A stretch of DNA of 64,000 bases from an uncultured Gammaproteobacteria bacterium (GCA_964590105.1 CAZPYM010000004.1:52198-116197), one strand, 5' to 3'. Numbered from the stretch's first letter, positions 15,231 through 63,993 are shown. Translations and numbers: made by a program. The notes: generated by a model from the sequence alone, not told the origin.

Positions 15231-15369
15231 CAAACCCAAAGCCCAAAACTCAAAATTCAAAGGAAATTCTAAATTCAAAATATAAAATCAAAAGTAACAC
15301 CTTGGAATTTTAAATTTTATTTTTGGAATTTCCTTTGTGCTTTGGATTTTGAATTTTGGGCTTTAAAAG
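15231..15369. mobile_element. long imperfect palindromic element (family with ttttgaattttgggctttgg-type arms)
   Basis: Left arm caaacccaaagcccaaaactcaaaattcaaagg and right arm cctttgtgctttggattttgaattttgggcttt are mutual reverse complements (imperfect). The inner halves ggaaattctaaattcaaaatataaaa and ttttaaattttatttttggaatttcc are also inverted. Related copies at 45951-46088 and 51775-51900. Confidence 0.4.
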
Positions 15370-41088: not shown

Positions 41089-41994
41089 CTAGCGCCGGCG
41101 ACCTCCTCGCGAACCGCGAGACGATCTGCCTGCTCCGACCGCCGGCGCAGAACGCCCTCGACCGGATCCACGCACACTAGCGCCCTTTGCCTTGCCGGAC
41201 GAGCGCTTCTTGCTCGACTTCGCAGCCGGCCGCGAATGCGACCTTGCCCGCGAATGCGCACTGTAGTTCGTGCCACGGCTACGGTGCTGACTGCTCCGAA
41301 ACTTCGGCTTGCCCTGCACCCGTATCCGCGTAGCGGCTGAATGGTGCTGGGTTTTTCCCTGATACGTGGCTTTACCCTTGGACTTGGCTTTGCCCTTGGG
41401 CTTGGCTTTGCCTTGATACGTGGCTTTGCCCTTGGGCTTGGCTTTGCCAGAATTTACCTTGTGCTTCTGGTGGCTCGAGTGAGCCGCCGTCTGCTTGTGG
41501 TGAGCGCCGTGATTGCCGTGCCCCTTCCACTGAACTCCCCAGTGATGGGGGTGGGCGTAGGACTGATGCGGCCGATGACGCCAGTACCACGGATGCACCC
41601 AATAGCTGTGTCCGCCGTACGAGTAGGAATGGTACCGGTGATAGCCGTTGTGATACCAGAAGAACGGCCAGCCGGAATAGTAGATGTACGACCCGACATA
41701 GAATCTGGGCCAGGCATCCACATACACCACGGTAGTCGGCTCTTCAAAGTAGTAGCCGTTCCACCCCTCGCACTGCTCCCAGCAGTCACACTCTTCCTCT
41801 TCCCGGTTGGAACACTGTTCCCAGCAAGGACATTCTTGCTCGCTCTCGCCAGCCTCGACAGCCGAGTCAGAGTCTCCAGCGGAGCCCTCTTCCTGATCCC
41901 ATGACGACTCATAGTCGCCGTAGGACTGCCCGCTGGCGAACGAACTGAACGCGAACATCATCGCGAACACAAAATAACAAAGAACTGTTCTCAT
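41089..41994 (-). CDS. secreted low-complexity protein: CxC/CW motifs, Trp/Tyr/His-rich core, Lys/Gly-rich KAKPKGKATYQGK repeats, Arg/Ser-rich tail
   Basis: Strong SD GGAGGTGA 5 nt upstream of ATG 41994 (MRTVLCYFVF...). Signal peptide ends ...FASGQSYG. The gene carries tandem DNA repeats at 41340-41460. GC is far above the window average. Confidence 0.45.
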   Translation of the reverse strand: MRTVLCYFVFAMMFAFSSFASGQSYGDYESSWDQEEGSAGDSDSAVEAGESEQECPCWEQCSNREEEECDCWEQCEGWNGYYFEEPTTVVYVDAWPRFYVGSYIYYSGWPFFWYHNGYHRYHSYSYGGHSYWVHPWYWRHRPHQSYAHPHHWGVQWKGHGNHGAHHKQTAAHSSHQKHKVNSGKAKPKGKATYQGKAKPKGKAKSKGKATYQGKTQHHSAATRIRVQGKPKFRSSQHRSRGTNYSAHSRARSHSRPAAKSSKKRSSGKAKGASVRGSGRGRSAPAVGAGRSSRGSRGGRRR

Positions 41995-42149
41995 TTTCTC
42001 ACCTCCGTGTTGTTGTTTCAAACTCTATACTTCATTCTAAGTTTAGCACAAAAGAAAAAATTTGTCAAGGGTGGCAAATGTCCAGATTACTCGCATATCA
42101 ACTTCGAATCTGTATATAGATTTGTAGATCTGTACCCTTTAAAAAAAAT

Positions 42150-42180
42150 GGAGCCCCGTCGGTATGAACGACAGGGCTCC
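42150..42180 (-). terminator. terminator-like hairpin (gagccccgtcg...cgacagggctc, one mismatch) with an A-run on the plus strand (T-run on the minus strand)
   Basis: Read directly. Downstream of the 42189..42470 gene. Confidence 0.4.
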
Positions 42181-42188
42181 GTTGAGAA

Positions 42189-42470
42189 CTAGTAGCGATA
42201 CGCCCAGCGGGCGCGATGGGCGCGATGGGTACGGTGGGGACGATGAGTGCAATGGGCGCGGTGGGCGCGATACTTGCAGTTCAAGGATCGGTAACTACGG
42301 TGCGACCGGTAAGAAGAACGGCAGTAATCGCCGTCGTAGTAGTAACCGTAGGAACACGCCGGTCGCCGGTAGGAGGCGTCATCGTACGTGTAACCGTACG
42401 TGCCGCAGCAGCCACCGAGGCCCAGAATTACCAGAGCGAAAAGAACAACGATCAAAAGGACTTTCTTCAT
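42189..42470 (-). CDS. small lipoprotein-like secreted protein, Tyr/Arg/His-rich
   Basis: SD AAAGGAGA upstream of ATG 42470. Signal peptide MKKVLLIVVLFALVILGLGGC with a lipobox-like LGGC. Mature part is Tyr/Cys/Arg/His-rich (YGYYYDGDYC, HRAHRTHRAHRAR). Confidence 0.4.
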   Translation of the reverse strand: MKKVLLIVVLFALVILGLGGCCGTYGYTYDDASYRRPACSYGYYYDGDYCRSSYRSHRSYRSLNCKYRAHRAHCTHRPHRTHRAHRARWAYRY

Positions 42471-42534
42471 GACGATCTCCTTTTTCCCCGCCCATGGCGG
42501 GGATCTTTGTGGATTTTCCTTCTTCAAGTTTGCT

Positions 42535-43056
42535 TCAGAGTCCGACAGTGCTCATGTCGCAGAGCAGATCCAGTCCCGGTGTTTGTCCCAGGAAACCACC
42601 GCCGGCAACTATGCACGCCTGCAGTTTTTCCGTGTAGAAGGCATTCCCCTCCATTCCGGGAATCACGCAGATGACGGAATTTCCGCTGCCTTTCAACAGT
42701 TGCCCCTGTCCGGGAAACTCCTTGCAGAGCTTTTCCAGGCTGTCGAGGCGGACGTTGTTGTAGTGGAATGTTGCGCCTTGCTCCGACGCCTCGCTGGCCT
42801 TGCTCATCTGATCTCCGGCATCCACCGCGCCGAATCCTTCCGTTGCGGTGACCACGACACCAGTGCCGAAATCGCCGACGACCGACTTCTCCGCCAATGC
42901 CGTCGCCGTCTCGATCTGCTCGACCGTCGCGCTACCACACCGACCCGTCACTTCCCGCTTGATCTCGTCCAGCCTACGTAACGTGATTGCACCGAAACAC
43001 ACCACGAGCGCATACACCACTATGCCACAAAGCATCACCACTGATTTCGTCGACAT
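42535..43056 (-). CDS. membrane-anchored hypothetical protein (paralog of 43114..43512)
   Basis: SD GGAGGAAGGAGA upstream of ATG 43056. N-terminal TM (VVMLCGIVVYALVVCFGAI). C-terminal ICVIPGMEGNAFYTEKLQACIVAGGGF...LLCDM is conserved with the next gene. Confidence 0.4.
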   Translation of the reverse strand: MSTKSVVMLCGIVVYALVVCFGAITLRRLDEIKREVTGRCGSATVEQIETATALAEKSVVGDFGTGVVVTATEGFGAVDAGDQMSKASEASEQGATFHYNNVRLDSLEKLCKEFPGQGQLLKGSGNSVICVIPGMEGNAFYTEKLQACIVAGGGFLGQTPGLDLLCDMSTVGL

Positions 43057-43113
43057 GTTCCTTTCTCCTTCCTCCGCCGCAGGCGAAGAGTTTTGGTTAC
43101 TTCTTCATTTCAC

Positions 43114-43512
43114 TCACAAACCGCACAAGATATGCAATCCTCCATACCGCACCGGCATTCCTCCTTCCCGTTCACAGGCAGCCCACTTTTCATCGAAGCC
43201 GTTCCCAGCCGCCTTGGGAATGACGCAAATCTCCACATGGCCATTGGTAGACACTGTCGACCAAATCTCGCCCTGAACTCTTTCGCAGTCTTTCGCCTGC
43301 GCCGGTGTCAGCCTCTCTATCGGAACCGCGGCCATCAGACGCGCGCCATGCGCCATCGGGACCTCCTTGACGTCGCCCAGCGACGGCTCCTTCACCTTCT
43401 CGAACACCGCTGGCCGCCCAGTGGTTTCTTCGTCCGGTCCGAGCAGGCAAAAGAAAAACATCGCAACAATCGCCACAAAAATTCCGCCAACTACGATACC
43501 AAGTGGTCTCAT
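43114..43512 (-). CDS. membrane-anchored hypothetical protein (paralog of 42535..43056)
   Basis: SD AAGGAGGA upstream of ATG 43512. N-terminal TM (IVVGGIFVAIVAMFFFCLLG). C-terminal ICVIPKAAGNGFDEKWAACEREGG...LHILCGL shares the Cys pattern with its neighbour. Confidence 0.4.
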   Translation of the reverse strand: MRPLGIVVGGIFVAIVAMFFFCLLGPDEETTGRPAVFEKVKEPSLGDVKEVPMAHGARLMAAVPIERLTPAQAKDCERVQGEIWSTVSTNGHVEICVIPKAAGNGFDEKWAACEREGGMPVRYGGLHILCGL

Positions 43513-44020
43513 CGCTTCCTCCTTAAAATGTTAACTTCAAAGCTCAAAGCTAAAAACCAACATTCAAATTGATTTGCAACTTTCAACTATTAAAATACTT
43601 GATTTACGTGATTTATTACGTGATATTACATGATAATCACGAACAATATCTTGGCGCGAAGCTATCACCTCTCATTACGTAGCCATCACGTAAACCACGT
43701 CTTTTATAAAAAAACAGCTGACCCGCACAATCAAGCTTACCAGCTCAAGTTCCTTCAGTAAACTGACTGAACTTGACTTGCGGTTACTCCACAGCATAGG
43801 AGGGGACACTGCTTTTCTCCACTGGCAAGCATGATTTCACGGACCAGCTTGTATAATATGATACAGAATTGCTGATCAAACTTGTTTCATCCAGATTTTA
43901 TATTATCCCCGATTAAGTTGTCAAGGATTTCTCATGTAATTAACCATTTCATTATATCATATTTTTGACAAAAAGTCAATAGGCGATTAATAATTCAAAA
44001 TGCTTTGGCTTAAATTAAAC

Positions 44021-44860: not shown

Positions 44861-45949
44861 ATGTCACTGAAATTCCACGTCGCGTTTTCGCAAATAAATC
44901 GGATCGGCGCGAAAAAATTCACTTTACTTAAAAATTATTTTTCCACTCTGGAACAAGCCTGGAATGCTTCTTGTTTCGAATTAATTGAAGCCGGCATTGA
45001 ACACGGTCTGGCCGAAGAAATTGTTCTGCGCAGAAAAAATATTAATCCTGATGAAGAACTTGAAAAACTTCAAAAAGAAAATATCAGCGCCGTGGCTCTT
45101 GACGATGAGCATTATCCTAAATTATTAAAACAAACTTACTCGCCCCCTTTCCTTTTATATTACAAAGGCGATTTAAATAATATTCACGAACAATCACTCG
45201 CAGTGGTCGGCTCGCGCAACATTACCAATTACGGCAAACAAATAACTCCACAGATCGTAGAACAATTACTCGGCCAGAACATCTTAATTGTTAGCGGGCT
45301 GGCGCTCGGCGTTGATTCACTCGCCCACTTAACTTGCGTTCGTAACAAAAAACCAACTGTCGCCGTGCTTGGTTCCGGTCTCGACAAACAAAATATTTAT
45401 CCGTCAATCAATCGCTCGCTCGCCGGGGAAATTCTTGCTAACGGCGGGCTTCTGGTTTCTGAATTTCCGGTCGGCATGATGCCGCTCCGCCACAATTTTC
45501 CCGCGCGCAACCGAGTTATTTCGGGCTTATGCCTTGGAACCTTAGTCATTGAAGCCGGCGAATCATCGGGCGCGCTCATTACCGCGCATTTTGCTCTGGA
45601 ACAAAACCGCGAAGTGTTCGCCATCCCAGGATCCATCAATCTGCCAATGTCAATCGGCACAAATAATTTGATCAAACGCGGCGCCAAGCTGGTAATGTCG
45701 GCTGAAGATATTTTTGAAGAACTTAATTTAAAACAGCTAAAACAATTTCAAACCGCGGAACAAACAATTCCTGATTCGCCGGAAGAGGGCGCAATTATTA
45801 AACATTTAAAAACAGAACCGCTTCACATAAACGAAATTGTTAAATTAAGCGACTTAACAATGCAGGAAGTTAATTCAACGCTGATGATGTTAGAAATGAA
45901 GGGGAAGGTTAGAAATTTGGGAAATAATTCCTATATCGCGGCAGGGTGA
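44861..45949 (+). CDS. dprA: DNA-processing protein DprA (Smf)
   Basis: Rossmann-like core LAVVGSRNITNYG...IVSGLALGVDSLAH...AVLGSGLD...VIEAGESSGALITA. C-terminal winged-helix-like extension. 362 aa. Confidence 0.85.
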   Translation: MSLKFHVAFSQINRIGAKKFTLLKNYFSTLEQAWNASCFELIEAGIEHGLAEEIVLRRKNINPDEELEKLQKENISAVALDDEHYPKLLKQTYSPPFLLYYKGDLNNIHEQSLAVVGSRNITNYGKQITPQIVEQLLGQNILIVSGLALGVDSLAHLTCVRNKKPTVAVLGSGLDKQNIYPSINRSLAGEILANGGLLVSEFPVGMMPLRHNFPARNRVISGLCLGTLVIEAGESSGALITAHFALEQNREVFAIPGSINLPMSIGTNNLIKRGAKLVMSAEDIFEELNLKQLKQFQTAEQTIPDSPEEGAIIKHLKTEPLHINEIVKLSDLTMQEVNSTLMMLEMKGKVRNLGNNSYIAAG

Positions 45950-45950
45950 A

Positions 45951-46088
45951 GTTCAAAATCCAAAGCACAAAACCCAAAGTAAATTCTAAATTTAAAATTC
46001 TAAATTCCAAGGTCTTCCTTGATATTTTAAATTTTTGGCTTTAAATTTCCCTTGCATTTTGAATTTTGGGCTTTGGGTTTTAAAACAA
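45951..46088. mobile_element. long imperfect palindromic element, same family as 15231-15369
   Basis: Arms gttcaaaatccaaagcacaaaacccaaag and ttttgaattttgggctttgggttttaaaac are inverted. AT-rich interior with an inverted aaattctaaattt / aaatttttggcttt pair. Confidence 0.35.
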
Positions 46089-49470: not shown

Positions 49471-51690
49471 ATGAAGCTAGTCATCGTCGAATCACCGACC
49501 AAAGCCAAAACAATTTCCAAATTTTTGCCGAGCGGTTACAAAGTCGAATCTTCATTCGGCCATGTGCGCGATCTGCCGGCCAAGCAGATGGGCATTGATA
49601 TTGAAAATAATTTTGAACCGACCTATGAAGTCAGCGAAAAATCTGAAAAACATGTCGCCAAACTAAAACAACTGGCCAAACAAAGCGAGCAGATTTTGTT
49701 TGCTTCTGACGAAGACCGCGAAGGAGAGGCGATTTCATGGCATTTGAAAGAAATTTTAAAACCAAAAAATTACGAACGCATTACTTTTCACGAAATCACG
49801 AAAAAAGCAATTGAACAGGCGCTGGAAAGTCCGCGCGATATTGACATGAATTTGGTTGACGCCCAGCAGGCGCGCAGAATTCTCGATCGGCTGGTGGGGT
49901 TTGAATTATCCCCATTTCTTTGGAAAAAAGTGGCGCGCGGATTGTCGGCCGGACGAGTTCAATCAGTGGCTGTGCGGCTGGTCGTGGAAAAAGAACGGGA
50001 AATTGAAGCATTTAAAACTGATGAATATTGGACGCTGGACGCGATTTTTAGTCCTGATGAAAAAAATAAATTCGAAGCCAAACTCCATGCCAGAGACGGC
50101 CAGACATTAAAAAAGTTTGATATTAATAATGAAAAACAAGCAAAAGAACTGACGGATGAACTGGAAAAGAAAAAATATCAAGTCGCCAACATCGAAGCAA
50201 AAGAATCCAAGAAAAAAGTGCCTGAACCATTCCGCACCTCCACCCTTCAACAGGCCGCCGGCAACCGACTTTATATGTCAGCCAAGGACACCATGCGCGT
50301 GGCGCAACAATTATATGAAGGAATTAAGCTCGGCGAAAAAGGCGCTGTCGGACTTATCACCTACATGCGCACTGATTCATTAAATCTTTCCAATGAATTT
50401 TTAAATCCCTGCCACGACTACATAAAAGAAAAATTCGGCAAAGAATACGTCCCGGCCAAGCCGCGCATTTTCAAAACCAAAAGCAAAGGTGCGCAGGAAG
50501 CACACGAAGCGATCAGGCCCACACACGTACATTTTGCGCCGGACGAGATCAGACAATATTTGGACGACAAGCAATTCAAAGTTTATAATTTGATCTGGCA
50601 GAGGGCAGTGGCCAGCCAGATGAAGGAAGCGCTGGTCAGCTCAACTACGATCGACATCAATTCAGATGATAATAATTTTACTTTTCGCGCTACAGGGCAG
50701 ACAATTAAATTCGACGGCTATCTAAAAGTTTACCCGACAGACACAAAAGAAACTCTTTTGCCTGAACTAAAACAGGCGCAGGTAGTTGATCTTGACGAAC
50801 TCAAACCAAACCAGCACTTTACCCAGCCGCCGGCGCGCTATACTGAAGCCGCGCTGATCAAAGCGCTGGAAGATTACGGCATCGGCCGGCCGTCGACCTA
50901 TGCGCCGACCATTTCCACTATTCAGGAACGCAACTATGTTATTAAGGAAGAAAAAAAACTAAAACCGACCGACATGGGAAAAATAGTCAATGACATTTTG
51001 GTGGAACATTTTCCCGACATTGTTGATTATCAATTCACCGCGGAAATGGAAAACAACCTGGATAAAATCGCCGACGGCAAGAAAAAATGGCAACCGGTCA
51101 TTAAAGCTTTTTATACTCCATTCCATTCCAACCTCGAAAAAAAGAGCAAAACATTGACTAAAAAAGAATTGACCGAAGAAGCGACTGAAGAAAAATGCGA
51201 AAAATGCGGCGCTCCCATGGTTATCAAAACCGGCCGATTCGGCCGCTTCATGGCTTGCTCCGCTTATCCCGAATGCAAAACAACAAAACCTGTTCCCGGG
51301 TCAGAAGAAGAAAATCATGAGCCAGAATTGGTTGATGAAAAATGTCCTGATTGCGGCGCTGCGCTGGCCAAACGGCGCGGCCGATACGGCGCGTTCCTCG
51401 GCTGTTCAAATTATCCTGATTGCAAATTCATAAAAAAATTCAGCCAATCAACAGGAATCAAATGCCCTGAATGCGGCGAGGGTGAAATTGTTTCGCGACG
51501 AGGCCGCAGCAAACGAATCTTCTTTGGTTGCGACAAATATCCAAAATGCAAATTTACTCTCTGGGGCAAACCAACAGGCGAAAAATGCCCGGCCTGCGAA
51601 TCGCTCATGATTCAAAAGGGCAAAAACGAAGTTTGTTCAAACAAAGATTGCAAGACTAATAAAAAAGAAACTCCTGAAGAAAAAAGTTAA
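49471..51690 (+). CDS. topA: DNA topoisomerase I with four C-terminal C4 zinc ribbons
   Basis: Toprim N-terminus MKLVIVESPTKAKTI. Type IA catalytic region. C-terminal CEKCGAPM..C, CPDCGAAL..C, CPECGEG..C, CPACESLM..C ribbons. 739 aa. Confidence 0.9.
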   Translation: MKLVIVESPTKAKTISKFLPSGYKVESSFGHVRDLPAKQMGIDIENNFEPTYEVSEKSEKHVAKLKQLAKQSEQILFASDEDREGEAISWHLKEILKPKNYERITFHEITKKAIEQALESPRDIDMNLVDAQQARRILDRLVGFELSPFLWKKVARGLSAGRVQSVAVRLVVEKEREIEAFKTDEYWTLDAIFSPDEKNKFEAKLHARDGQTLKKFDINNEKQAKELTDELEKKKYQVANIEAKESKKKVPEPFRTSTLQQAAGNRLYMSAKDTMRVAQQLYEGIKLGEKGAVGLITYMRTDSLNLSNEFLNPCHDYIKEKFGKEYVPAKPRIFKTKSKGAQEAHEAIRPTHVHFAPDEIRQYLDDKQFKVYNLIWQRAVASQMKEALVSSTTIDINSDDNNFTFRATGQTIKFDGYLKVYPTDTKETLLPELKQAQVVDLDELKPNQHFTQPPARYTEAALIKALEDYGIGRPSTYAPTISTIQERNYVIKEEKKLKPTDMGKIVNDILVEHFPDIVDYQFTAEMENNLDKIADGKKKWQPVIKAFYTPFHSNLEKKSKTLTKKELTEEATEEKCEKCGAPMVIKTGRFGRFMACSAYPECKTTKPVPGSEEENHEPELVDEKCPDCGAALAKRRGRYGAFLGCSNYPDCKFIKKFSQSTGIKCPECGEGEIVSRRGRSKRIFFGCDKYPKCKFTLWGKPTGEKCPACESLMIQKGKNEVCSNKDCKTNKKETPEEKS

Positions 51691-51768: not shown

Positions 51769-52259
51769 GATTTGTAAGTTGAGTTGATTTTGAATTTTGA
51801 ACTTTGGGTTTCTCAAAAAGCTGCCGCCTGCATTTTCCCCTTTGGATTTGAAGCAACTTCCTTTGAATTTTGAACTTAGACTTTTGGATTTCTCAAAAAA
51901 CCCGCTAATGCGGGCTTTTTGAGTGTAGGGTTCTGGATTGAAACCCCAATTAAAGTTGATGATAGGGTATCACAGAGACCCTACGTGACTATAATAACAA
52001 ATGATTGACAGACTGACAAGGGCATTAATGTAATTCAGAATCTTTTCCCTTTACATTACAAAAAATAACTAAATTAACTATTTAAAACGAAAACTCCTAG
52101 ATCAGAGACCCAGGAGCTTTCAAATTGAGATTCTAACCTACCATCAACAAAGGCATTATAGCAAACTTTAGCCAACTTGTCAAGTGCCCCAACAAAAACG
52201 AACCCCGTAAAACTAATCCTCTATTGATTTTTTCCTAAAATATGCTTAAATAATAGTAT

Positions 52260-53903
52260 ATGCCGGTCAATGAAATAATCCAATCAATCAGGAAAAAACA
52301 ACCCGAATCCTCAATTAAAAAATTTGAGAACAGTTATAATCTACTCAAAAAAAATACCTCGGACCTGACTTTTATTGATAAAAAAAATGTTATTCGCAAA
52401 GCGCTTGAAAGAGCGCTTTTTGCTGCCAAAGAAAATGCTTGCATTGAATACACTTGCGCGGTGATGTTTTTCGATCTCGGAAAAAGAGACAAAAATATTT
52501 ATAAGGAAATAAAATCAACTCTTGGCGAAGACATTGAGCGCGTTGTCAAAAGTTACAACTATGCAGAACAGCATCTGGGACCGGAAAAAAAATATTTGCT
52601 GGATCATTCCGAGCGCATCGCCCTCGACCTCGCCTACGCCAAGCTTGACTCCGCCGCCATCTGCACCGCGCTTTTGCATGAAGTACCCAACAACACGCAA
52701 ATAACAATAGAGGATATTGAAAAATTATTTGGCAGTGAAATCGGAACCCTGTCGCGCAATTTCCAAAAAATTCGAGCCATCAAAACCACCAACAATCAGC
52801 AATACATTTCTCATTTACGGGAAATGACCGTGGCCATGGCCGCTGACTTGCGGGTAATTATTATAAAAATGTGTTCCAATATTGACCGCATGCTAAACCC
52901 CACAGTGGAATCAGAAGAAAAACTGATGAACATTGCCCTTGAATCGCGGGAAATATTCGCCCCCCTGGCCGACCTTCTGGGAATCTGGCAGCTGCGCTGG
53001 CGACTTGAGGATTATTCTTTCAAAATTCTTGAACCGCAAGAATATGAAAAAATTTCCCGCAGATTTCACGTTGACGAGAAAAAAAACAGGAACAAATACA
53101 TTCAAAAAACAATCAGCCTCCTGCAAAATGCGGCCAAAGAAAATAAGATCGTCTGTTCAATTGACGGCCGCTTCAAACATTTTTATAGCATTCACGCAAA
53201 GATGAAAGCCAAGAAAAAAAGTTTCGATGACATCTGCGATGTTTTTGCTTTGCGAGTAATTGTTGAAAAGGTTGATGACTGCTATAGAATGCTTGGTCTT
53301 ATTCATAATCTCTGGCGCCCCAAAAACCGGCGCATCAAAGATTATATTGCCGCTCCAAAAAGCAATAAATATCGCAGTCTGCACACAACTGTTTTCGGCT
53401 TGAACGGACGAGCGACTGAATTCCAAATCCGCACAAGAGAAATGCATGAAGAAGCCAACTATGGCATCACGGCGCATTGGCATTATAAAAATCCAAGAAA
53501 AAAAATCCCGCCATGGATCCAGGAATTACTGCTCAAACAACAAGAATACACGAGCGATGAAGAATTTATAAACAAATTTAAATCAGATGTACTGGGCGAC
53601 AGAATTTATGTTTACAGCCCAAAGGGAGATGTCATTTCCCTGCCGGCCAATTCCACCCCTATTGATTTTGCTTATCACATTCACTCTGAAATCGGACACA
53701 AATGCAGTGAAGCTCTGGTCAATGATATTCCCGTGCCGCTAAACTACAACCTGGCAACTAATGATATTGTTCAAATAATACTGGATCGCAATCAGCGGGG
53801 GCCAAAAGCAAACTGGCTCGATTTCGTCAAAACAAACGCCGCCAGAAATCATATTGAAGACTATTTAAAACGCAAGCCAGTGGAAAGAAGCTTTAGACTT
53901 TGA
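52260..53903 (+). CDS. RelA/SpoT homologue with degenerate hydrolase domain (HD changed to HE, ED changed to NN), intact synthetase and TGS domain; no ACT/C-terminal regulatory domains
   Basis: Hydrolase-region ALLHEVPNNTQIT versus the canonical LHDVxED. Synthetase motifs RVIVEKVDDCYRMLGLIHNLWRP, YRSLHTTV, EFQIRTREMH. TGS IYVYSPKGDVISLPANSTPIDFAYHIHSEIG. 547 aa. Confidence 0.8.
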   Translation: MPVNEIIQSIRKKQPESSIKKFENSYNLLKKNTSDLTFIDKKNVIRKALERALFAAKENACIEYTCAVMFFDLGKRDKNIYKEIKSTLGEDIERVVKSYNYAEQHLGPEKKYLLDHSERIALDLAYAKLDSAAICTALLHEVPNNTQITIEDIEKLFGSEIGTLSRNFQKIRAIKTTNNQQYISHLREMTVAMAADLRVIIIKMCSNIDRMLNPTVESEEKLMNIALESREIFAPLADLLGIWQLRWRLEDYSFKILEPQEYEKISRRFHVDEKKNRNKYIQKTISLLQNAAKENKIVCSIDGRFKHFYSIHAKMKAKKKSFDDICDVFALRVIVEKVDDCYRMLGLIHNLWRPKNRRIKDYIAAPKSNKYRSLHTTVFGLNGRATEFQIRTREMHEEANYGITAHWHYKNPRKKIPPWIQELLLKQQEYTSDEEFINKFKSDVLGDRIYVYSPKGDVISLPANSTPIDFAYHIHSEIGHKCSEALVNDIPVPLNYNLATNDIVQIILDRNQRGPKANWLDFVKTNAARNHIEDYLKRKPVERSFRL

Positions 53904-53945
53904 TATAATGGTAAAGCGATAAAGAAAACTGGGACAGTGATAAAT

Positions 53946-53973
53946 GAGAAGTGAAATTTAAATGTCACTTCTC
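53946..53973 (+). promoter_or_regulatory. perfect 9-bp inverted repeat gagaagtga-N10-tcacttctc in the leader of the second RSH gene
   Basis: Read directly. Related sequence tgaaatttaaatRtcacttctcac upstream of rpsU (35024-35056), and gagaagtgaaat upstream of der (38990-39010). Confidence 0.4.
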
Positions 53974-53995
53974 ACATCCCACCTCCCCCCGCTAT

Positions 53996-55447
53996 ATGAC
54001 AATCCGCCAATTGATTGAAACAATGAAAGAAAATTATTCTGCCGACGAGATTAGATTAGTCGAGCAGGCTTATGATTTTGCCGCTGAAGCTCACAAAGGG
54101 CAAAAAAGATCAACCGGCGACGATTACATTGAACACTCTTTGCAGACCAGCAAAACCCTAGCCGAGCTAAAACTTCCGGCGCCAATGATCGCGGCCGGCA
54201 TGCTCCACGACGTACCGGAAGACACCAAAAGAACGCTTGACGAAATTACAAAATTATTCGGCACAGACATCGCCAAAATGGTTGAAGGCATTACAAAAGT
54301 TGGCCGCGTTAAATATAGAGGGATTGATCGATACGTTGAAAACCTGCGCAAAATGTTTGTAGCCATGGCCGAAGATATCCGGGTGATAATCATTAAATTT
54401 GCTGACCGCTTGCACAATCTGCAAACTCTCTATGCCCGACCCGCCGATAAACAAAGAAGAATAGCGCTCGAAACTCTGGAAATATATGCGCCAATTGCCA
54501 ATCGACTAGGAATTGGAGAACTCCAAGCCAGACTTGAAGATGCTGCATTTAAATACGCTTATCCGGAAGAATACATCAAAACAGAACAAATGATAAAAAA
54601 GAATTTTCCGATCAAAAAGAAAACGCTAAATAACATGATCCGAAAAATAAAAAATAAATTAGACAAAGACTCTATTAAATATTATGATATATATGGACGA
54701 ACAAAACATTATTACAGTTTTTACAGAAAATTTCTTAAATACAACAGGGACATAAAACAAATATACGATTTGGTGGCCATGCGTATCATCGTGAACTCTG
54801 TTGCTGATTGTTACGCTACGCTCGGCGTGATCCACAATCTCTGGCGGCCAATCCGTGGTAAAATCAAGGATTACATTGCTCAGCCAAAACCAAACGGCTA
54901 TCAATCACTGCACACTGCAGTATTTGGCGATGATCAGGAAATTGTTGAAATACAAATTCGAACGCAAAAAATGCACGAGCAGGCAGAACTCGGTATTGCC
55001 AGCCACTGGCGCTACAAAGAAATGCCGAAAGCCGGCAAAAAAGAAATTGAATGGGTCAGCGAGCTAGCCAGCTGGCTAAAAAATGTCAAAAACAACGACC
55101 AACTTTTGGAAGGCGCAAAAATTGATGTTTTCCAAAACAGAATTTTTGTATTCACGCCACAGGGCGATGTTATTGATCTGCCTGACGGCGCCACACCGGT
55201 TGATTTTGCTTATCACATCCACACGGAAATCGGCAATAAATGCTCCAGGGCCATGGTTAATACTGAAATCGTGTCGCTCGACCGAAAACTAAAAAACGGC
55301 GACGTGGTGCAAATTATTACTGACAAAAATCGAAAAGGGCCAAATCCTGAATGGCTTAAATTCATAAAAACCAGAACCGCCCGCGCCCACGTCGAATCTC
55401 AAAAAAATAAAAACTGGAAAAAATTCATTCCAAAATTTTCCAAATAA
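53996..55447 (+). CDS. bifunctional RelA/SpoT homologue ((p)ppGpp synthetase/hydrolase) with intact HD domain, synthetase and TGS; no ACT domain
   Basis: HD motif EHSLQ...AGMLHDVPEDT. Synthetase RIIVNSVADCYATLGVIHNLWRP, YQSLHTAV, EIQIRTQKMH. TGS IFVFTPQGDVIDLPDGATPVDFAYHIHTEIG. ATG at 53996 preferred over the GTG at 53951, which lies inside the leader hairpin. Confidence 0.85.
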   Translation: MTIRQLIETMKENYSADEIRLVEQAYDFAAEAHKGQKRSTGDDYIEHSLQTSKTLAELKLPAPMIAAGMLHDVPEDTKRTLDEITKLFGTDIAKMVEGITKVGRVKYRGIDRYVENLRKMFVAMAEDIRVIIIKFADRLHNLQTLYARPADKQRRIALETLEIYAPIANRLGIGELQARLEDAAFKYAYPEEYIKTEQMIKKNFPIKKKTLNNMIRKIKNKLDKDSIKYYDIYGRTKHYYSFYRKFLKYNRDIKQIYDLVAMRIIVNSVADCYATLGVIHNLWRPIRGKIKDYIAQPKPNGYQSLHTAVFGDDQEIVEIQIRTQKMHEQAELGIASHWRYKEMPKAGKKEIEWVSELASWLKNVKNNDQLLEGAKIDVFQNRIFVFTPQGDVIDLPDGATPVDFAYHIHTEIGNKCSRAMVNTEIVSLDRKLKNGDVVQIITDKNRKGPNPEWLKFIKTRTARAHVESQKNKNWKKFIPKFSK

Positions 55448-55472: not shown

Positions 55473-58400
55473 ATGAAGCGATTGCCGGCTTTCCTGTTTA
55501 TTTTTACGATTAGCATTGTTTTATTTATCTTCTTACCGATCGCTCCGGCCGAGGCGGCTATTTGGGACATCCAGTACAATGGCGCGAATTATTGCTGCAA
55601 CAGTTCTTACAACACTTGCTACAATGCTTTCGACTGGGCCTACTTGATTTACAATGATAATAAAAGCAAAAGCGACGCCAACCCAAATAACGACACAAAT
55701 ATTGCAACAGACACTGCCAGCATGTGTCGTGAAATCGGCGACTGCATAGCAACAACCTGCGAAAACAAACCTGATCCGCTGACAGCCAAATGCAGTATTA
55801 ATAAACCATCCGCCTGCAAAAATGAATTCCAATGCGACCAACAAAATCCTGACGACGCCCTACCGACAGATCCTAAATTAGTCTGGGACGGCGCTAAATG
55901 TCTCTCAAACGGCATTAACTGCAGCAGTAAATCAGATTGCCCTGCTCAACAATATTGCTGTCTCAGCAAACATGACGACTGCACACCCTACACTTGCACT
56001 ATCGTTAAGCCAACTTATGATATTACTTGCGACGAAAACATTAGTAATTGCTTGAAAACCGCGCCACAGCAGTGCGAAGAGGACTGTATACAAGCAAAAC
56101 AAGACAAATGTGACGAATGTAGACAAGAAAAAATAGAAAAATGTAATACTGCCTGCGACGACCTAACGGAAAACCAAGATGACTGTAAAACCGGCTGCCC
56201 AGACGGAGTAGACGACGCAATAGATAACCTAGAAATATGTCAAAATGACTGCCAAAACATACAAGGCGCAGCAACCTATGTGTGCACCAAGCCCTGTCTA
56301 GATCAGGCGCTCAAAGATTGTCGAAACGAACAACCTGGAGGGGCCTGCAAAGAATGTGAGCAAGATTATGAATGTATTACAGAAAACTGCGCTTCCATAG
56401 ACACCACTATAGGAGAACAAGCGATAAGCCCACTTGAGATGGTAAAATTTGTCTGTCGAGCAAAACCATGTGTAAAAAATAAAGATTGTACAGACGCCGG
56501 ACTCTACGGAACATACTGCCACATTGACAATTTAGACCCGAACCATAATGAATGTCTTCCGCTAAAACAACTCGGGGATTCATGCCTAAGCAGTGACGAC
56601 TGCGCACCAGGATTGCATTGTCCGAATTTTGTTTGTGTAGCCGAATGCATAGATGACGCTGAATGTCCGAAATCTCAATATTGTAATTGGTACGGACTTA
56701 ATGGTAGCCCGACTATAAAGGGTGATCCAAATTCAGATCATATATGCTATGACCTAGTACCAGTAGGAGGCTCTTGTAAGTATTCAAATCAATGCTTGTC
56801 CGGCCTCACCTGCAGTGGCGGAAAATGCTCCAAAGCCGGCCCGCCACCACCGCCGTCTACCGATGAAAAATATTTCACCGGATCCAAATGCTACAATGCT
56901 ATCACCTCGCTAAAAGATCTATGCCCAACGGAAAAATTTCACATGTGGGATGGCATCAAGTGCAATAATACTATTTTTCTTATAAAAACATATTGCAACA
57001 CCTCGTTTTCTTACGACAGTTATACTCAAATGGACGCTGCGGTTCTGGCCGGCGAGGACGTGTCCCAAATGTTAGCTGCAGAAGCAAACATGTTTGATGA
57101 TCCGGCGGACGCAGATCTATATATCAATCCCTTGACCACAATTTCGTTCCCCTGCGGAATTATAGATGATCAATTAATCAACTGCGACACGAAAGGAAAA
57201 TGCGATATTTTATTCCCCTTCCCTCTGGATAACTGGTACGACGATCAATGCCACAAAGACGCGCAAGCTTGCGACACGCACGCCGACTGTACTGTAGAAA
57301 AATATTGCGACCCCACGACAAAAAAATGCTTTGCTAAAAAATACGCAGGAGAATCAGCGCCGGATGTTTTTGCCTGTTTTGGCGGTTATTTTTCCAATAA
57401 ATGCACCTGCACAGGAGGGACAACTGTCGGCTGTCCTGCCGGCCTGGAATGCGAAAGCATGTTCAACTGCGCCGCGCCCAAAGCCTGCGGTCCGAGCAAT
57501 CCCGACTGTCCCGCCGGAAAATTCTGCAATATTGATAATCAAAAACTACCGATAAATCAGTGTTTGGCAAAACAAGAAAAAGGAAAAGGCTGCGTTTCCC
57601 CTAATGAGTGCATCACTGATATGTGCTTTGATGGAAAATGCGACGATGCATATGCACCGGGAACAAAAAAAGAGGGTGAGTCTTGCACAGCTAATCCCAA
57701 AACGCCCGACTGCGTCAAAGGATTTTACTGCGATCCCGCCGGCAATACATGCTCTGCTCAAAAAAAGACAGGAGATGAATGTGCGTTTGCAGTTGAATGT
57801 CTCTCCATAAAATGCACAGCCAATAAATGCGAGCCCATGCCGGGAGAACAAAAATATGGCACCAAAGCAGAAGGCGTCGCCTGCACTGACTATGCAACAA
57901 TCAAACAAAATGATTGTAGCAGTGGTCTATTCTGCTCCGAAGGAACTCAAAAAGTTTGCGTTAAACAAGCTCCGGTCGGTGAAAGTTGCTCCGCCAATTA
58001 TTATTGCATATCAAATTCCTGCGATCTAGCGTCGGGCGGAACAAAAAAGTGTCTCTCTGTAGCCGGCGCGCCAGGAGAAGTCTGCTCCCCCGCCTGCAAT
58101 GCCTGGGAAACTTGTTCCAATAGCGCCTGTAAACTAAATGCCGGCGCCTGCAAGGTCGAAGCTGACTGCGCAGCTGAAGCCACAAATAAATATTGCAATA
58201 CCACAACAAATAAATGCGAAGCGCCAAAGCTATGCACTGATGCAAAGGACTGCACTGATGCACAATATTGCGCCACTACCTGCAAAGATAAACTGACGAG
58301 TGGCTTGGCCTGCACTGCCCCTGAACAATGTTTTTCTTCGGAAGGTTGCCTTGAGAGCAAATGCGCCTGTACTGACACCAAAGAATGCCCGAAAGACAAT

Positions 58401-59519
58401 TATTGCGCTGCAAAAAAATGCACCGCTAAATTGGGCGAGGGCGGAGTCTGCACCGACGCCACCAAAGATATCTGTCTGTCCGGCGAATGTAAAGATGAAA
58501 AGTGCGTGGCTCCGGCAACCGGACCACCCCCGCCGGCCCCGGTCTGCACTCCTACTTGTACTAATGCCTGGGAAGAATGCCAGGCCGGCACGCCCAATGC
58601 CTGCAAACTAAAAGCCGGCATGTGCAACCTAGAAGCTGACTGCGCGGCGGCTACCGACAAAAAAACCTACTGCAATACGACAAAACATGAATGTGAAACA
58701 CCAAAAGCCTGCAAAAAAACAAGCGACTGCACAGCGACACAATATTGCGACACCAAAGCAAAAGCTTGCAAAGACAAACTGGCTTCAGGATTAGCCTGCG
58801 AAGATGCTACTCAATGTCTTTCAATCAACGGCTGCACGAACAAAAAATGCGCCTGCGAAAAATCAGCTGATTGTCCAAAATCTCAATACTGCGGTGGGAC
58901 AACTTTTGAATGCATCGAAAAAACAAAAGTCGGAGACTCTTGTCCGTTCAGCACTACATTTTGCAAAGATATTTGCATCAGTGGTATCGCCAAAGCCGAT
59001 CCCGCAGATGCAACAAAAAGTATCTGCATTTGTGATAATACCTCTCAATGCGAAGACGGCAAATACTGTTCAAATAACGGCGCCGAAAAAGACAAATGTG
59101 TTGACAAGCTGGCGGAAGGGGCAAAGTGCGCAATGGACGGCGTGTGCAAATCAGGGAAATGCCTTATAGATAGTGGAAGTGGAAAAACAGAAGGCGTGTG
59201 TTCAAAACCGGCGGCAGTGGCGCCAGGCGGAGCAGGCGGCGGAACGCCGGTTGTCTCAATCCTCCTGCCAAATTTTCTCGGCACTGATGACCCGTCCGAT
59301 GTTATCGGCCGTGTTATCAATTATATTGTCGGACTAGCCGGCACCGCGGCCATGGTCATGTTTATTTACGGCGGAGCGATGTGGCTGATTTCAGCCGGCC
59401 GGCCGGAATATGTTAGTAAAGGGAGAGACACCATGATGTGGGCGGCGATCGGACTGTTTCTGATTTTTACGAGTTATGTGCTGATTAAATTTATTGTTAA
59501 ATTGCTCGGTTCAGGATAA
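55473..59519 (+). CDS. 1348-aa Cys-rich secreted protein with N-terminal signal peptide and a C-terminal pilin-like two-helix hairpin
   Basis: Signal peptide MKRLPAFLFIFTISIVLFIFLPIAPAEA. Hundreds of Cys in repeated CxxDCxxxQYC-type modules, with an internal tandem duplication of about 560 nt (~57980-58540 versus ~58540-59100). C-terminal VINYIVGLAGTAAMVMFIYGGAMWLISAGRPEYVSKGRDTMMWAAIGLFLIFTSYVLIKF is homologous in architecture to the N-terminal hairpins of the 3624-aa and 709-aa proteins. Confidence 0.65.
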   Translation: MKRLPAFLFIFTISIVLFIFLPIAPAEAAIWDIQYNGANYCCNSSYNTCYNAFDWAYLIYNDNKSKSDANPNNDTNIATDTASMCREIGDCIATTCENKPDPLTAKCSINKPSACKNEFQCDQQNPDDALPTDPKLVWDGAKCLSNGINCSSKSDCPAQQYCCLSKHDDCTPYTCTIVKPTYDITCDENISNCLKTAPQQCEEDCIQAKQDKCDECRQEKIEKCNTACDDLTENQDDCKTGCPDGVDDAIDNLEICQNDCQNIQGAATYVCTKPCLDQALKDCRNEQPGGACKECEQDYECITENCASIDTTIGEQAISPLEMVKFVCRAKPCVKNKDCTDAGLYGTYCHIDNLDPNHNECLPLKQLGDSCLSSDDCAPGLHCPNFVCVAECIDDAECPKSQYCNWYGLNGSPTIKGDPNSDHICYDLVPVGGSCKYSNQCLSGLTCSGGKCSKAGPPPPPSTDEKYFTGSKCYNAITSLKDLCPTEKFHMWDGIKCNNTIFLIKTYCNTSFSYDSYTQMDAAVLAGEDVSQMLAAEANMFDDPADADLYINPLTTISFPCGIIDDQLINCDTKGKCDILFPFPLDNWYDDQCHKDAQACDTHADCTVEKYCDPTTKKCFAKKYAGESAPDVFACFGGYFSNKCTCTGGTTVGCPAGLECESMFNCAAPKACGPSNPDCPAGKFCNIDNQKLPINQCLAKQEKGKGCVSPNECITDMCFDGKCDDAYAPGTKKEGESCTANPKTPDCVKGFYCDPAGNTCSAQKKTGDECAFAVECLSIKCTANKCEPMPGEQKYGTKAEGVACTDYATIKQNDCSSGLFCSEGTQKVCVKQAPVGESCSANYYCISNSCDLASGGTKKCLSVAGAPGEVCSPACNAWETCSNSACKLNAGACKVEADCAAEATNKYCNTTTNKCEAPKLCTDAKDCTDAQYCATTCKDKLTSGLACTAPEQCFSSEGCLESKCACTDTKECPKDNYCAAKKCTAKLGEGGVCTDATKDICLSGECKDEKCVAPATGPPPPAPVCTPTCTNAWEECQAGTPNACKLKAGMCNLEADCAAATDKKTYCNTTKHECETPKACKKTSDCTATQYCDTKAKACKDKLASGLACEDATQCLSINGCTNKKCACEKSADCPKSQYCGGTTFECIEKTKVGDSCPFSTTFCKDICISGIAKADPADATKSICICDNTSQCEDGKYCSNNGAEKDKCVDKLAEGAKCAMDGVCKSGKCLIDSGSGKTEGVCSKPAAVAPGGAGGGTPVVSILLPNFLGTDDPSDVIGRVINYIVGLAGTAAMVMFIYGGAMWLISAGRPEYVSKGRDTMMWAAIGLFLIFTSYVLIKFIVKLLGSG

Positions 59520-63907: not shown

Positions 63908-63993
63908 GCCGCCGTGGCGAAACTGGTAGACGCGCACGACTCAAAATCGTGTGGAGTTCCTCCATGTCGGTTCGACTCCGACCGGCGGCACCA
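63908..63993 (+). tRNA. tRNA-Leu (anticodon CAA), class II with long variable arm, CCA encoded
   Basis: gccgccgtggcgaaactggtagacgcgcacgactcaaaatcgtgtggagttcctccatgtcggttcgactccgaccggcggcacca. The 7-bp acceptor stem gccgccg/cggcggc pairs. The anticodon loop CUCAAAA gives CAA. Near-identical in layout to E. coli tRNA-Leu(CAA). Confidence 0.85.

Follow-up and report, generated by a model that had tools for sequence, protein, structure and literature searches.

In Beta- and Gammaproteobacteria, two long RelA/SpoT homologues can share a genome: RelA[hS], with a degenerate hydrolase and an intact synthetase domain, and SpoT[HS], with its hydrolase kept; in the synthetase-only copy the hydrolase domain is relaxed and the synthetase domain constrained. 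RelA also has ExDD at the position of the RxKD motif. Lineage-specific duplicates of Rel include RshA in Actinobacteria and RshB[HS] in Bacteroidetes, the latter with marked divergence of the hydrolase, “similar to that for RelA”; in a few Bacillus strains there is a divergent second copy, RshC[HS], truncated within the helical domain and with its TGS domain kept (PMC3153485). The literature library searched yielded no paper on alarmone enzymes of Patescibacteria. Here we describe two adjacent, truncated long RelA/SpoT homologues, genes A and B, in a stretch of 64,000 nucleotides (nt) from an uncultured bacterium (GCA_964590105.1, CAZPYM010000004.1:52198-116197; the whole stretch is referred to as the window). 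The organism belongs to the Patescibacteria (candidate phyla radiation), and homologues of the two proteins carry taxon labels such as Patescibacteria group, Parcubacteria group and Candidatus Falkowbacteria. We consider it probable that A and B make up a two-gene alarmone module, conserved in one Patescibacteria clade and drawn from two minimal long RelA/SpoT lineages that separated long ago. Judged by its sequence, the pair is functionally RelA/SpoT-like and architecturally RshC-like, and by membership neither RelA nor SpoT, because of its low equivalog scores, the RxKD motif in A, its separate origin and its truncated C-termini.

Gene A (52260..53903, plus strand; 547 amino acids, aa) and gene B (53996..55447, plus strand; 483 aa) were identified by open reading frame (ORF), Pfam, TIGR00691 and alignment evidence. 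As the original prediction had it, they are two long genes of this family lying head to tail 48-90 nt apart: the measured gap is 47 nt to an alternative GTG start of B (53951) and 92 nt to the ATG at 53996, where the orthologues begin (MTIRQL...). The possibility that one copy is a frameshifted pseudogene was looked at; both ORFs are intact, and full-length homologues span 100% of each. HD_4, RelA_SpoT and TGS domains are found in both proteins (E 1e-28 to 1e-48 for HD_4 and RelA_SpoT). In A these lie at 52536..52994 (the pseudo-hydrolase, residues 93-245, with its catalytic residues replaced), 53166..53495 (the synthetase, residues 303-412, with catalytic residues invariant across the A family) and 53604..53780 (TGS, residues 449-507), all on the plus strand, and in B at 54068-54514, 54695-55021 and 55142-55321, also on the plus strand. 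The catalytic HD model PF01966 is matched by B only, not by A.

Both proteins have HD and RelA_SpoT domains in one polypeptide, as in the long RelA/SpoT class, but not the full C-terminal region of that class. They cover 23-455 (A) and 1-454 (B) of the 687 positions of the TIGR00691 profile, can be aligned to Bacillus subtilis Rel until about residue 487, and stop about 35 residues past TGS, without the helical, zinc-finger/CC and ACT/RRM regions. Pfam gave no match to an ACT or helical domain in either, in line with the prediction that both genes end soon after TGS. When the window was searched with a profile hidden Markov model of the last 270 aa of full-length Rel, no separate gene for a Rel C-terminal part turned up, nor did a third RelA/SpoT homologue. 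B scores above the TIGR00691 cut-off of 499.2 bits (580.7) and A below it (470.7), because of its truncation and decayed hydrolase domain. Unlike true RelA and SpoT, both fall far under the equivalog cut-offs (A, 347.4 bits against the 728 required by the RelA model NF008124; B, 439 bits against the 947 required by the SpoT model NF008303). The best solved-structure sequence match of A by phmmer is B. subtilis Rel (6yxa chain, 562 residues, which is also the best fold match), not E. coli RelA, and an AlphaFold2 model of A built on a 57-sequence alignment (predicted local distance difference test, pLDDT, 86.5; predicted template modelling score, pTM, 0.83) has Rel, RelA and SpoT as its top matches in a fold search. 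A and B end at about the same position as truncated laboratory constructs of Rel; such constructs are cut from full-length enzymes, whereas the truncation here is natural and conserved throughout the lineage. The architecture is the same as that of RshC, to go by its published description (PMC3153485). RshC differs in having two catalytic domains and in existing alongside a full-length Rel, whereas here one copy is a pseudo-hydrolase and none of the Patescibacteria loci sampled showed a full-length enzyme.

Catalytic residues of both domains were scored against the Rel reference in MAFFT and phmmer alignments, with B. subtilis Rel numbering (equal to classic Rel numbering), in one survey of 57 A-family sequence clusters or proteins and a second of 32 A sequences. 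For comparison there are two further groups of Patescibacteria homologues: Y, which consists of every partner B together with single-copy genes right after topA and before parB (L007, L009, L015, L043, L071 and 14 more from a topA-centred scan), and U, whose members (P0060-P0120, L004-L006) are about 487 aa long and have their hydrolase intact. The HD-region motif is LLHEVPNNT in A and MLHDVPEDT in B. Of the hydrolase residues, H53 is kept in A and invariant in its family, and H77 is kept in A and mostly kept in its family; H39, R44, D78, E81, D82, D144, R145, H147 and N148 are replaced across the 57 A-family proteins. Position 39 of the window's A reads L by MAFFT or H by phmmer (L or F being commonest in the family) and position 44 reads G by MAFFT or K by phmmer (variable in the family); E81 and D82 are both N, again variable in the family. 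At the remaining positions the window's A agrees with its family: E for D78, S for D144, N for R145, D for H147 and R for N148. Three of the substituted residues (S144, N145 and D147) are conserved in their own right. B keeps every one of the hydrolase residues, and six partner B proteins keep them, and the synthetase residues, as well save for single-sequence exceptions (D82E, H147D/N and R295K). The degenerate hydrolase read from LHEVPNN in the upstream copy, with synthetase and TGS retained, and the HD..HD..ED signature, synthetase and TGS read in the downstream copy are therefore borne out by residue alignment, A not keeping the full hydrolase set.

In the synthetase domain, R241, K243, K251, D264, R269, K297, D298, Y308, H312, E324, Q326 and R328 are kept in the window's A and B and are essentially invariant in A, partner B, U and Y proteins; across the A sequences synthetase residues are 98-100% conserved. 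Position 295, the first of RxKD, is R in the window's A and K in its B. R295 is invariant in A and U, and the Y lineage varies, with K in two partner B proteins and S and L in two of the single-copy genes. The A motif is R-R-I-K-D, with R295, K297 and D298 invariant in the family: unlike RelA, A has kept the RxKD of bifunctional Rel, and there is no acidic motif. B resembles bifunctional Rel[HS] in having all hydrolase and synthetase catalytic residues, save K for R at 295, and differs from SpoT in keeping all of its synthetase residues. In TGS, the histidine that corresponds to B. subtilis H420 does not vary in any of the groups (A, B, U and Y).

Domain identities, averaged over the same six genomes for both genes, run in opposite directions in A and B. 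The most conserved domain of A is the synthetase (67%, against 36% for the hydrolase and 59% for TGS), while those of B are the hydrolase (74%) and TGS (77%), its synthetase standing at 64%. Opposite constraint of this kind supports a RelA/SpoT-like division of labour at the level of sequence constraint, as had been proposed from the resemblance of the pair to a synthetase-only and a bifunctional enzyme. The residue data contradict, again at the level of sequence, the database label of A-type proteins, “bifunctional (p)ppGpp synthetase/hydrolase”. Another possibility is that A is not a synthetase but a non-catalytic regulatory pseudoenzyme, such as a heterodimer partner of B or a tRNA sensor controlling it. 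The A hydrolase domain is enlarged and remodelled, with conserved residues of its own (S144, D147), and the adjacency of A and B is conserved, to the point of overlap in locus L002 (-4 nt), all of which would suit such a role; however, the 98-100% conservation of synthetase catalytic and substrate-binding residues in both surveys, in what is the most conserved domain of the protein, makes us think it decidedly unlikely.

The enlargement of A, which also sets it apart from RelA, is an extra, partial duplication of its hydrolase domain. At its N-terminus A extends about 65 residues beyond B, and its residues 14-92 (52299..52535, plus strand) are a degenerate copy, internal to the protein, of the helices that open the hydrolase domain, recognized by profile-profile comparison with hhalign both against A's own hydrolase domain (97.6% probability, E 4.7e-12) and against the B/U hydrolase domain (96.7% probability). 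The duplicated part includes the HD-motif helix, where the motif has become FFDL, and AlphaFold2 models it as ordered helices (pLDDT 80-95). Residues 1-105 used as a query gave only 4 matches among 1.84 billion representative proteins, and the extension is therefore specific to the A family. This internal duplication of hydrolase helices is newly seen here, as is a separate conserved promoter-like motif for each of the two genes.

In the two-gene module reading, the minimal enzyme plan is a hydrolase domain, a synthetase domain, TGS and a short helix. A would be a dedicated (p)ppGpp synthetase, able to make the alarmone and unable to degrade it, with an enlarged dead hydrolase and a constrained synthetase and TGS; B would most likely supply all (p)ppGpp hydrolysis and some of the synthesis. 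As in RelA/SpoT, the balance between A as maker and B as breaker or maker would then fix the net alarmone level. Each gene has its own conserved promoter-like -10 box near its ATG. Sensing would probably depend on tRNA binding and on autoinhibition through TGS, with little or no locking onto the ribosome, since the CCA-contacting histidine of TGS is kept and the ribosome-anchoring helical, zinc-finger, RRM and ACT domains are absent. In B. subtilis Rel, deletion of the RRM and the zinc-finger domain increases hydrolysis and compromises ribosome-dependent synthesis, and tRNA inhibits hydrolysis via H420, which stacks on the tRNA CCA end; a TGS-helical fragment reads CCA specifically (PMC7797070). 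By analogy with that enzyme, the naturally truncated B may be hydrolase-dominant and switched by uncharged tRNA, with hydrolase-dead A providing net synthesis. A broader proposal, for which we would claim only a modest chance, is that the Patescibacteria stringent response as such runs on TGS-only enzymes unable to lock onto the ribosome in the manner of Rel and RelA, amino-acid starvation being sensed mainly off the ribosome via uncharged tRNA; one clade would have split the system by recruiting a second lineage of ancient divergence to the side of the resident gene, and the duplicated dead hydrolase of A would have turned into a new regulatory or interaction module, with A:B heterodimers or an allosteric ligand as candidate roles.

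If the two-gene module is real, it would be a further independent split into synthetase-only and hydrolase-competent enzymes, beside proteobacterial RelA/SpoT and other cases such as the plant enzymes, and its very different setting, in tiny, host-dependent Patescibacteria genomes, would help in testing what causes such splits to evolve. The sampled Patescibacteria lineage, lacking domains thought essential for ribosome-dependent control, would be a natural counterpart of the truncation constructs, and such a natural minimal enzyme allows a basic question to be asked: can TGS alone couple tRNA charging to alarmone levels?

The origin of the pair was examined with neighbour-joining trees (Kimura distances, 200 bootstraps) including 23 outgroup Rel proteins. 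A genome-contig scan with the A-family alignment provided ordinary Rel genes, used as outgroups, and single-copy Patescibacteria examples; its listed matches were mostly ordinary Rel genes, and no A orthologue was among them. Patescibacteria homologues form a clade of their own apart from the outgroup Rel proteins (94-100%), within which the A proteins form a clade (100%) joined by U in trees of the whole protein (91-98%), of the synthetase domain only (99%) and of the hydrolase domain only (64%). In trees of the whole protein, HD domain or synthetase domain, no replicate unites A with its own partner B (0/200), and for TGS alone 4% of replicates do so; a group of A, U and partner B is likewise never recovered (0/200). 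Partner B proteins group instead with the topA-linked single-copy Y genes (73-98%). Synthetase-domain identity is 55% between A and U, 43% between A and Y and 46% between A and the outgroup; the excess for A and U is more than ancestral similarity retained. In this respect the pair differs from RelA/SpoT, the A-B split being placed by the neighbour-joining trees as one of independent origin inside the Patescibacteria clade. It differs also from RshB and RshA, which A resembles as a lineage-specific extra copy of Rel: those proteins nest in the Rel of their own phylum and, except for Salinispora RshA, keep the full C-terminal region, whereas A is sister to another Patescibacteria lineage rather than to its neighbour.

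The original prediction had described the pair as a local tandem duplication of truncated enzymes and asked whether it was recent. That B duplicated recently in place, and the upstream copy then lost its hydrolase, is an idea to which adjacency, co-orientation and the shared truncated architecture lend some appeal, but we now hold it to be very improbable. A and B are only 44% identical; 4/4 A proteins tested score higher against U-type proteins than against any partner B, the margin being about 130-200 BLOSUM units; bootstrap support is 0/200 for A with its partner against 91-98% for A with U; and the pair is kept in relatives whose A is 42-45% identical to that of the window. The duplication claim thus failed in the phylogeny. 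Gene conversion between A and B was considered and rejected, the identity of A to its own partner being equal to its identity to the partners in other genomes. As for “truncated”, the description applies to both genes, but the feature is not special to them: sampled Patescibacteria homologues are all about 480-550 aa long, against about 700-790 aa for outgroup Rel, and loss of the helical, zinc-finger and ACT regions therefore predates the A-B pair. A Firmicute Rel homologue, from Thermoanaerobacter thermocopriae (L010:5968-7707), is only 579 aa long, compared with about 720 aa in relatives, and is not at a contig end; the gene may be disrupted, or its C-terminus may have been lost independently.

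The simplest reading of these sequence relationships is that B is the resident gene and A a second old Patescibacteria lineage, which reached the topA-B interval either through lateral transfer or as an ancient paralogue subject to differential loss, its hydrolase being lost afterwards. U genes sit at another genomic position, divergent from giant T4SS_pilin proteins and, in genomes with only a U-type gene (the U clade), about 8 kb upstream of the lytR-topA block; the topA-centred scan showed no homologue in the 10 kb after topA in U-clade genomes. When a tree was built from topA, the U clade and the clade of genomes with the A-B tandem (the T clade) were not sisters (0/200), and single-copy Y lineages branch between them. 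Several points count against the module as proposed. TGS alone gives 1% support for A with U, and the TGS of A is 57% identical to that of partner-type B and 52% to that of U. The long A branch could be misplaced, the trees being neighbour-joining distance trees only, and the U sequences were chosen as best matches to A, so that “closest relative” is biased, though the comparison with partner B is unaffected. On the functional side, A could be weakly active or purely regulatory, and the promoter and leaderless assignments made below for A and B are inferred from conserved motifs alone.

Some of these points would fit an old duplication of the topA-linked gene in place, with a fast-evolving upstream copy and a basal A + U group that is a long-branch artefact; U would then be the upstream copy with its hydrolase kept, moved elsewhere and left as the sole copy after loss of B. 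In its favour, A sits exactly between topA and B, the lack of a homologue after topA in U-clade genomes fits loss of a B-type gene, Y monophyly excluding A + U falls to 73% with wider sampling, and there is the slight affinity of A and partner B in TGS. We nevertheless regard this history as unlikely: A, U and partner B never group together (0/200), Y monophyly reaches 98% on the synthetase domain alone, and the separation of T and U clades in the topA tree means that several independent losses would be needed.

The neighbourhood of the pair is conserved. Upstream is topA (49471..51690, plus strand; gene calls and synteny), which marks the slot of the B-type (Y) gene across Patescibacteria, and downstream, starting 26 nt after the end of B, is a gene (55473..59519, plus strand) for a cysteine-rich secreted protein of 1348 aa identified by domain search, with Dickkopf_N-like repeats and a C-terminal T4SS_pilin domain. 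The order topA, A, B and then one or more T4SS_pilin genes recurs in 6/6 further loci with topA in range, in which identity of A to the window's A runs from 58% down to 44% and, in most, parB and parA follow a few genes later. In two closer relatives, A and B are followed by a T4SS_pilin gene (L090) or by a gene with no Pfam match (L089); altogether, T4SS_pilin genes after B were found in L001, L002, L084, L085, L086, L090 and one further locus, and so in every relative for which the gene after B was identified. Spacing between A and B among relatives ranges from the 4-nt overlap in L002 to +93 nt; adjacency of the two genes is itself a difference from RelA and SpoT, as is their lack of helical, zinc-finger/CC and ACT/RRM regions. 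At L001:5150-7264, the B protein as called has 704 aa and includes a fused T4SS_pilin domain, and the U-type homologues also adjoin giant T4SS_pilin proteins, a lasting linkage of alarmone enzyme and pilin.

A synthetase-only protein beside a hydrolase-competent one also recalls toxin-antitoxin systems, for which there is general precedent (PMC7229694): A would be a toxic synthetase and B would neutralize it by hydrolysis, the two forming a mobile pair. Toxic small alarmone synthetase modules have a single-domain toxin and a patchy or mobile distribution, and the A-B pair has neither. Here, both proteins are long multi-domain enzymes with TGS, each gene has a promoter-like motif of its own, B is a resident orthologue found alone in many genomes, and the context (in the window, lytR-der-pth ... 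dprA-murligase-topA-A-B-pilin ... parB-parA) is a stable core one, lytR-der-pth-dprA-topA ... parB-parA being conserved over deep divergence. We therefore give this model almost no credence, and return to the conserved alarmone module in considering how its genes might be expressed.

Upstream of A is a predicted promoter-like motif (52224..52251, plus strand), recognized by its conservation: TTGATT, 16 nt, TGcTTAAAT, ending 8 nt before the ATG. It stands immediately before A in the window, L090, L086 and L085 and a few nt further upstream in L089; in L002 it is about 100 nt upstream, a repeat-rich insertion separating it from the ATG. The spacing of motif and ATG would imply a leaderless or nearly leaderless mRNA for A. 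For B, a motif scan gave a predicted promoter-like site (53881..53909, plus strand) of TGGAAA, 17 nt and TG-n-TATAAT, whose -10 box overlaps the A stop codon (TGAtataat). The A-B spacers of L086, L084, L089, L090, L085 and L001 retain either TGATATAAT or TATAAT, and in L090 the B ATG follows the -10 box by 6 nt, with no leader, which suggests that the B transcript was ancestrally leaderless.

In the window, B has instead a 92-nt leader, in which a repeat search and folding identify the perfect 9-bp (base pair) inverted repeat noted in the original prediction (53946..53973, plus strand). Its arms, GAGAAGTGA (53946-53954) and TCACTTCTC (53965-53973), flank a 10-nt loop, and the repeat reaches 10 bp if a U-A closing pair is counted; the alternative GTG start lies within the left arm. 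Perfect 9-bp repeats of this kind number 13 in the window against 2.9 in shuffles, and an 85-nt stretch of the leader folds at -20.7 kcal/mol (z = -3.9). The repeat is thus real, and commoner than in shuffles, but it is not conserved in close relatives: L090 is leaderless, and L089 and L086 carry different hairpins. A terminator was rejected, there being no T-run after the repeat, and a conserved regulatory element was rejected as well, relatives having either no leader or unrelated hairpins. The repeat is best read as one of several independent hairpin-carrying insertions rather than as a control element under conservation. Insertions of 80-100 nt, unrelated to one another, lie between the conserved -10 box and the B start in L089 (4648-4730), L086 (7645-7737) and the window (53910-53995), and a like insertion precedes the start of gene A in L002 (5880-6000), each with inverted or short repeats of its own; small palindromic elements appear to land in, and so to create, the leaders of genes that otherwise have none.

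Rfam and tRNA scans found nothing near the A-B pair, their sole match being a tRNA-Leu at 63908. On the minus strand of the 570-nt topA-A spacer (52183..52078) there is a perfect (12/12) promoter-like match, TTGACA, 17 nt, TG-n-TATAAT, with a hairpin of 16-bp stem and a T-run downstream of it (52122..52088; fold z = -4.6); the arrangement could encode a small RNA about 70 nt long, for which there was no Rfam match. The same spacer holds two direct 33-nt copies, 80 nt apart, of a dispersed intergenic element with the core TTGAATTTTGAACTT, the second followed immediately by a terminator-like hairpin (51901-51914). The core has 11 matches against 1.2 expected, with sites at 15246-15363, 45949-46073 and 51787-51899, and the element forms long imperfect palindromes at two sites. 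Further upstream, between pth and dprA, is a 2.5-kb island (41100-43600) with a GC content of 55-64%, compared with about 42% for the genome. No Pfam match was found in the ORFs of the island, which are four small minus-strand ones with signal or transmembrane N-termini and low-complexity sequence rich in cysteine, histidine, tyrosine and lysine; in the relative L085, pth and dprA adjoin each other.

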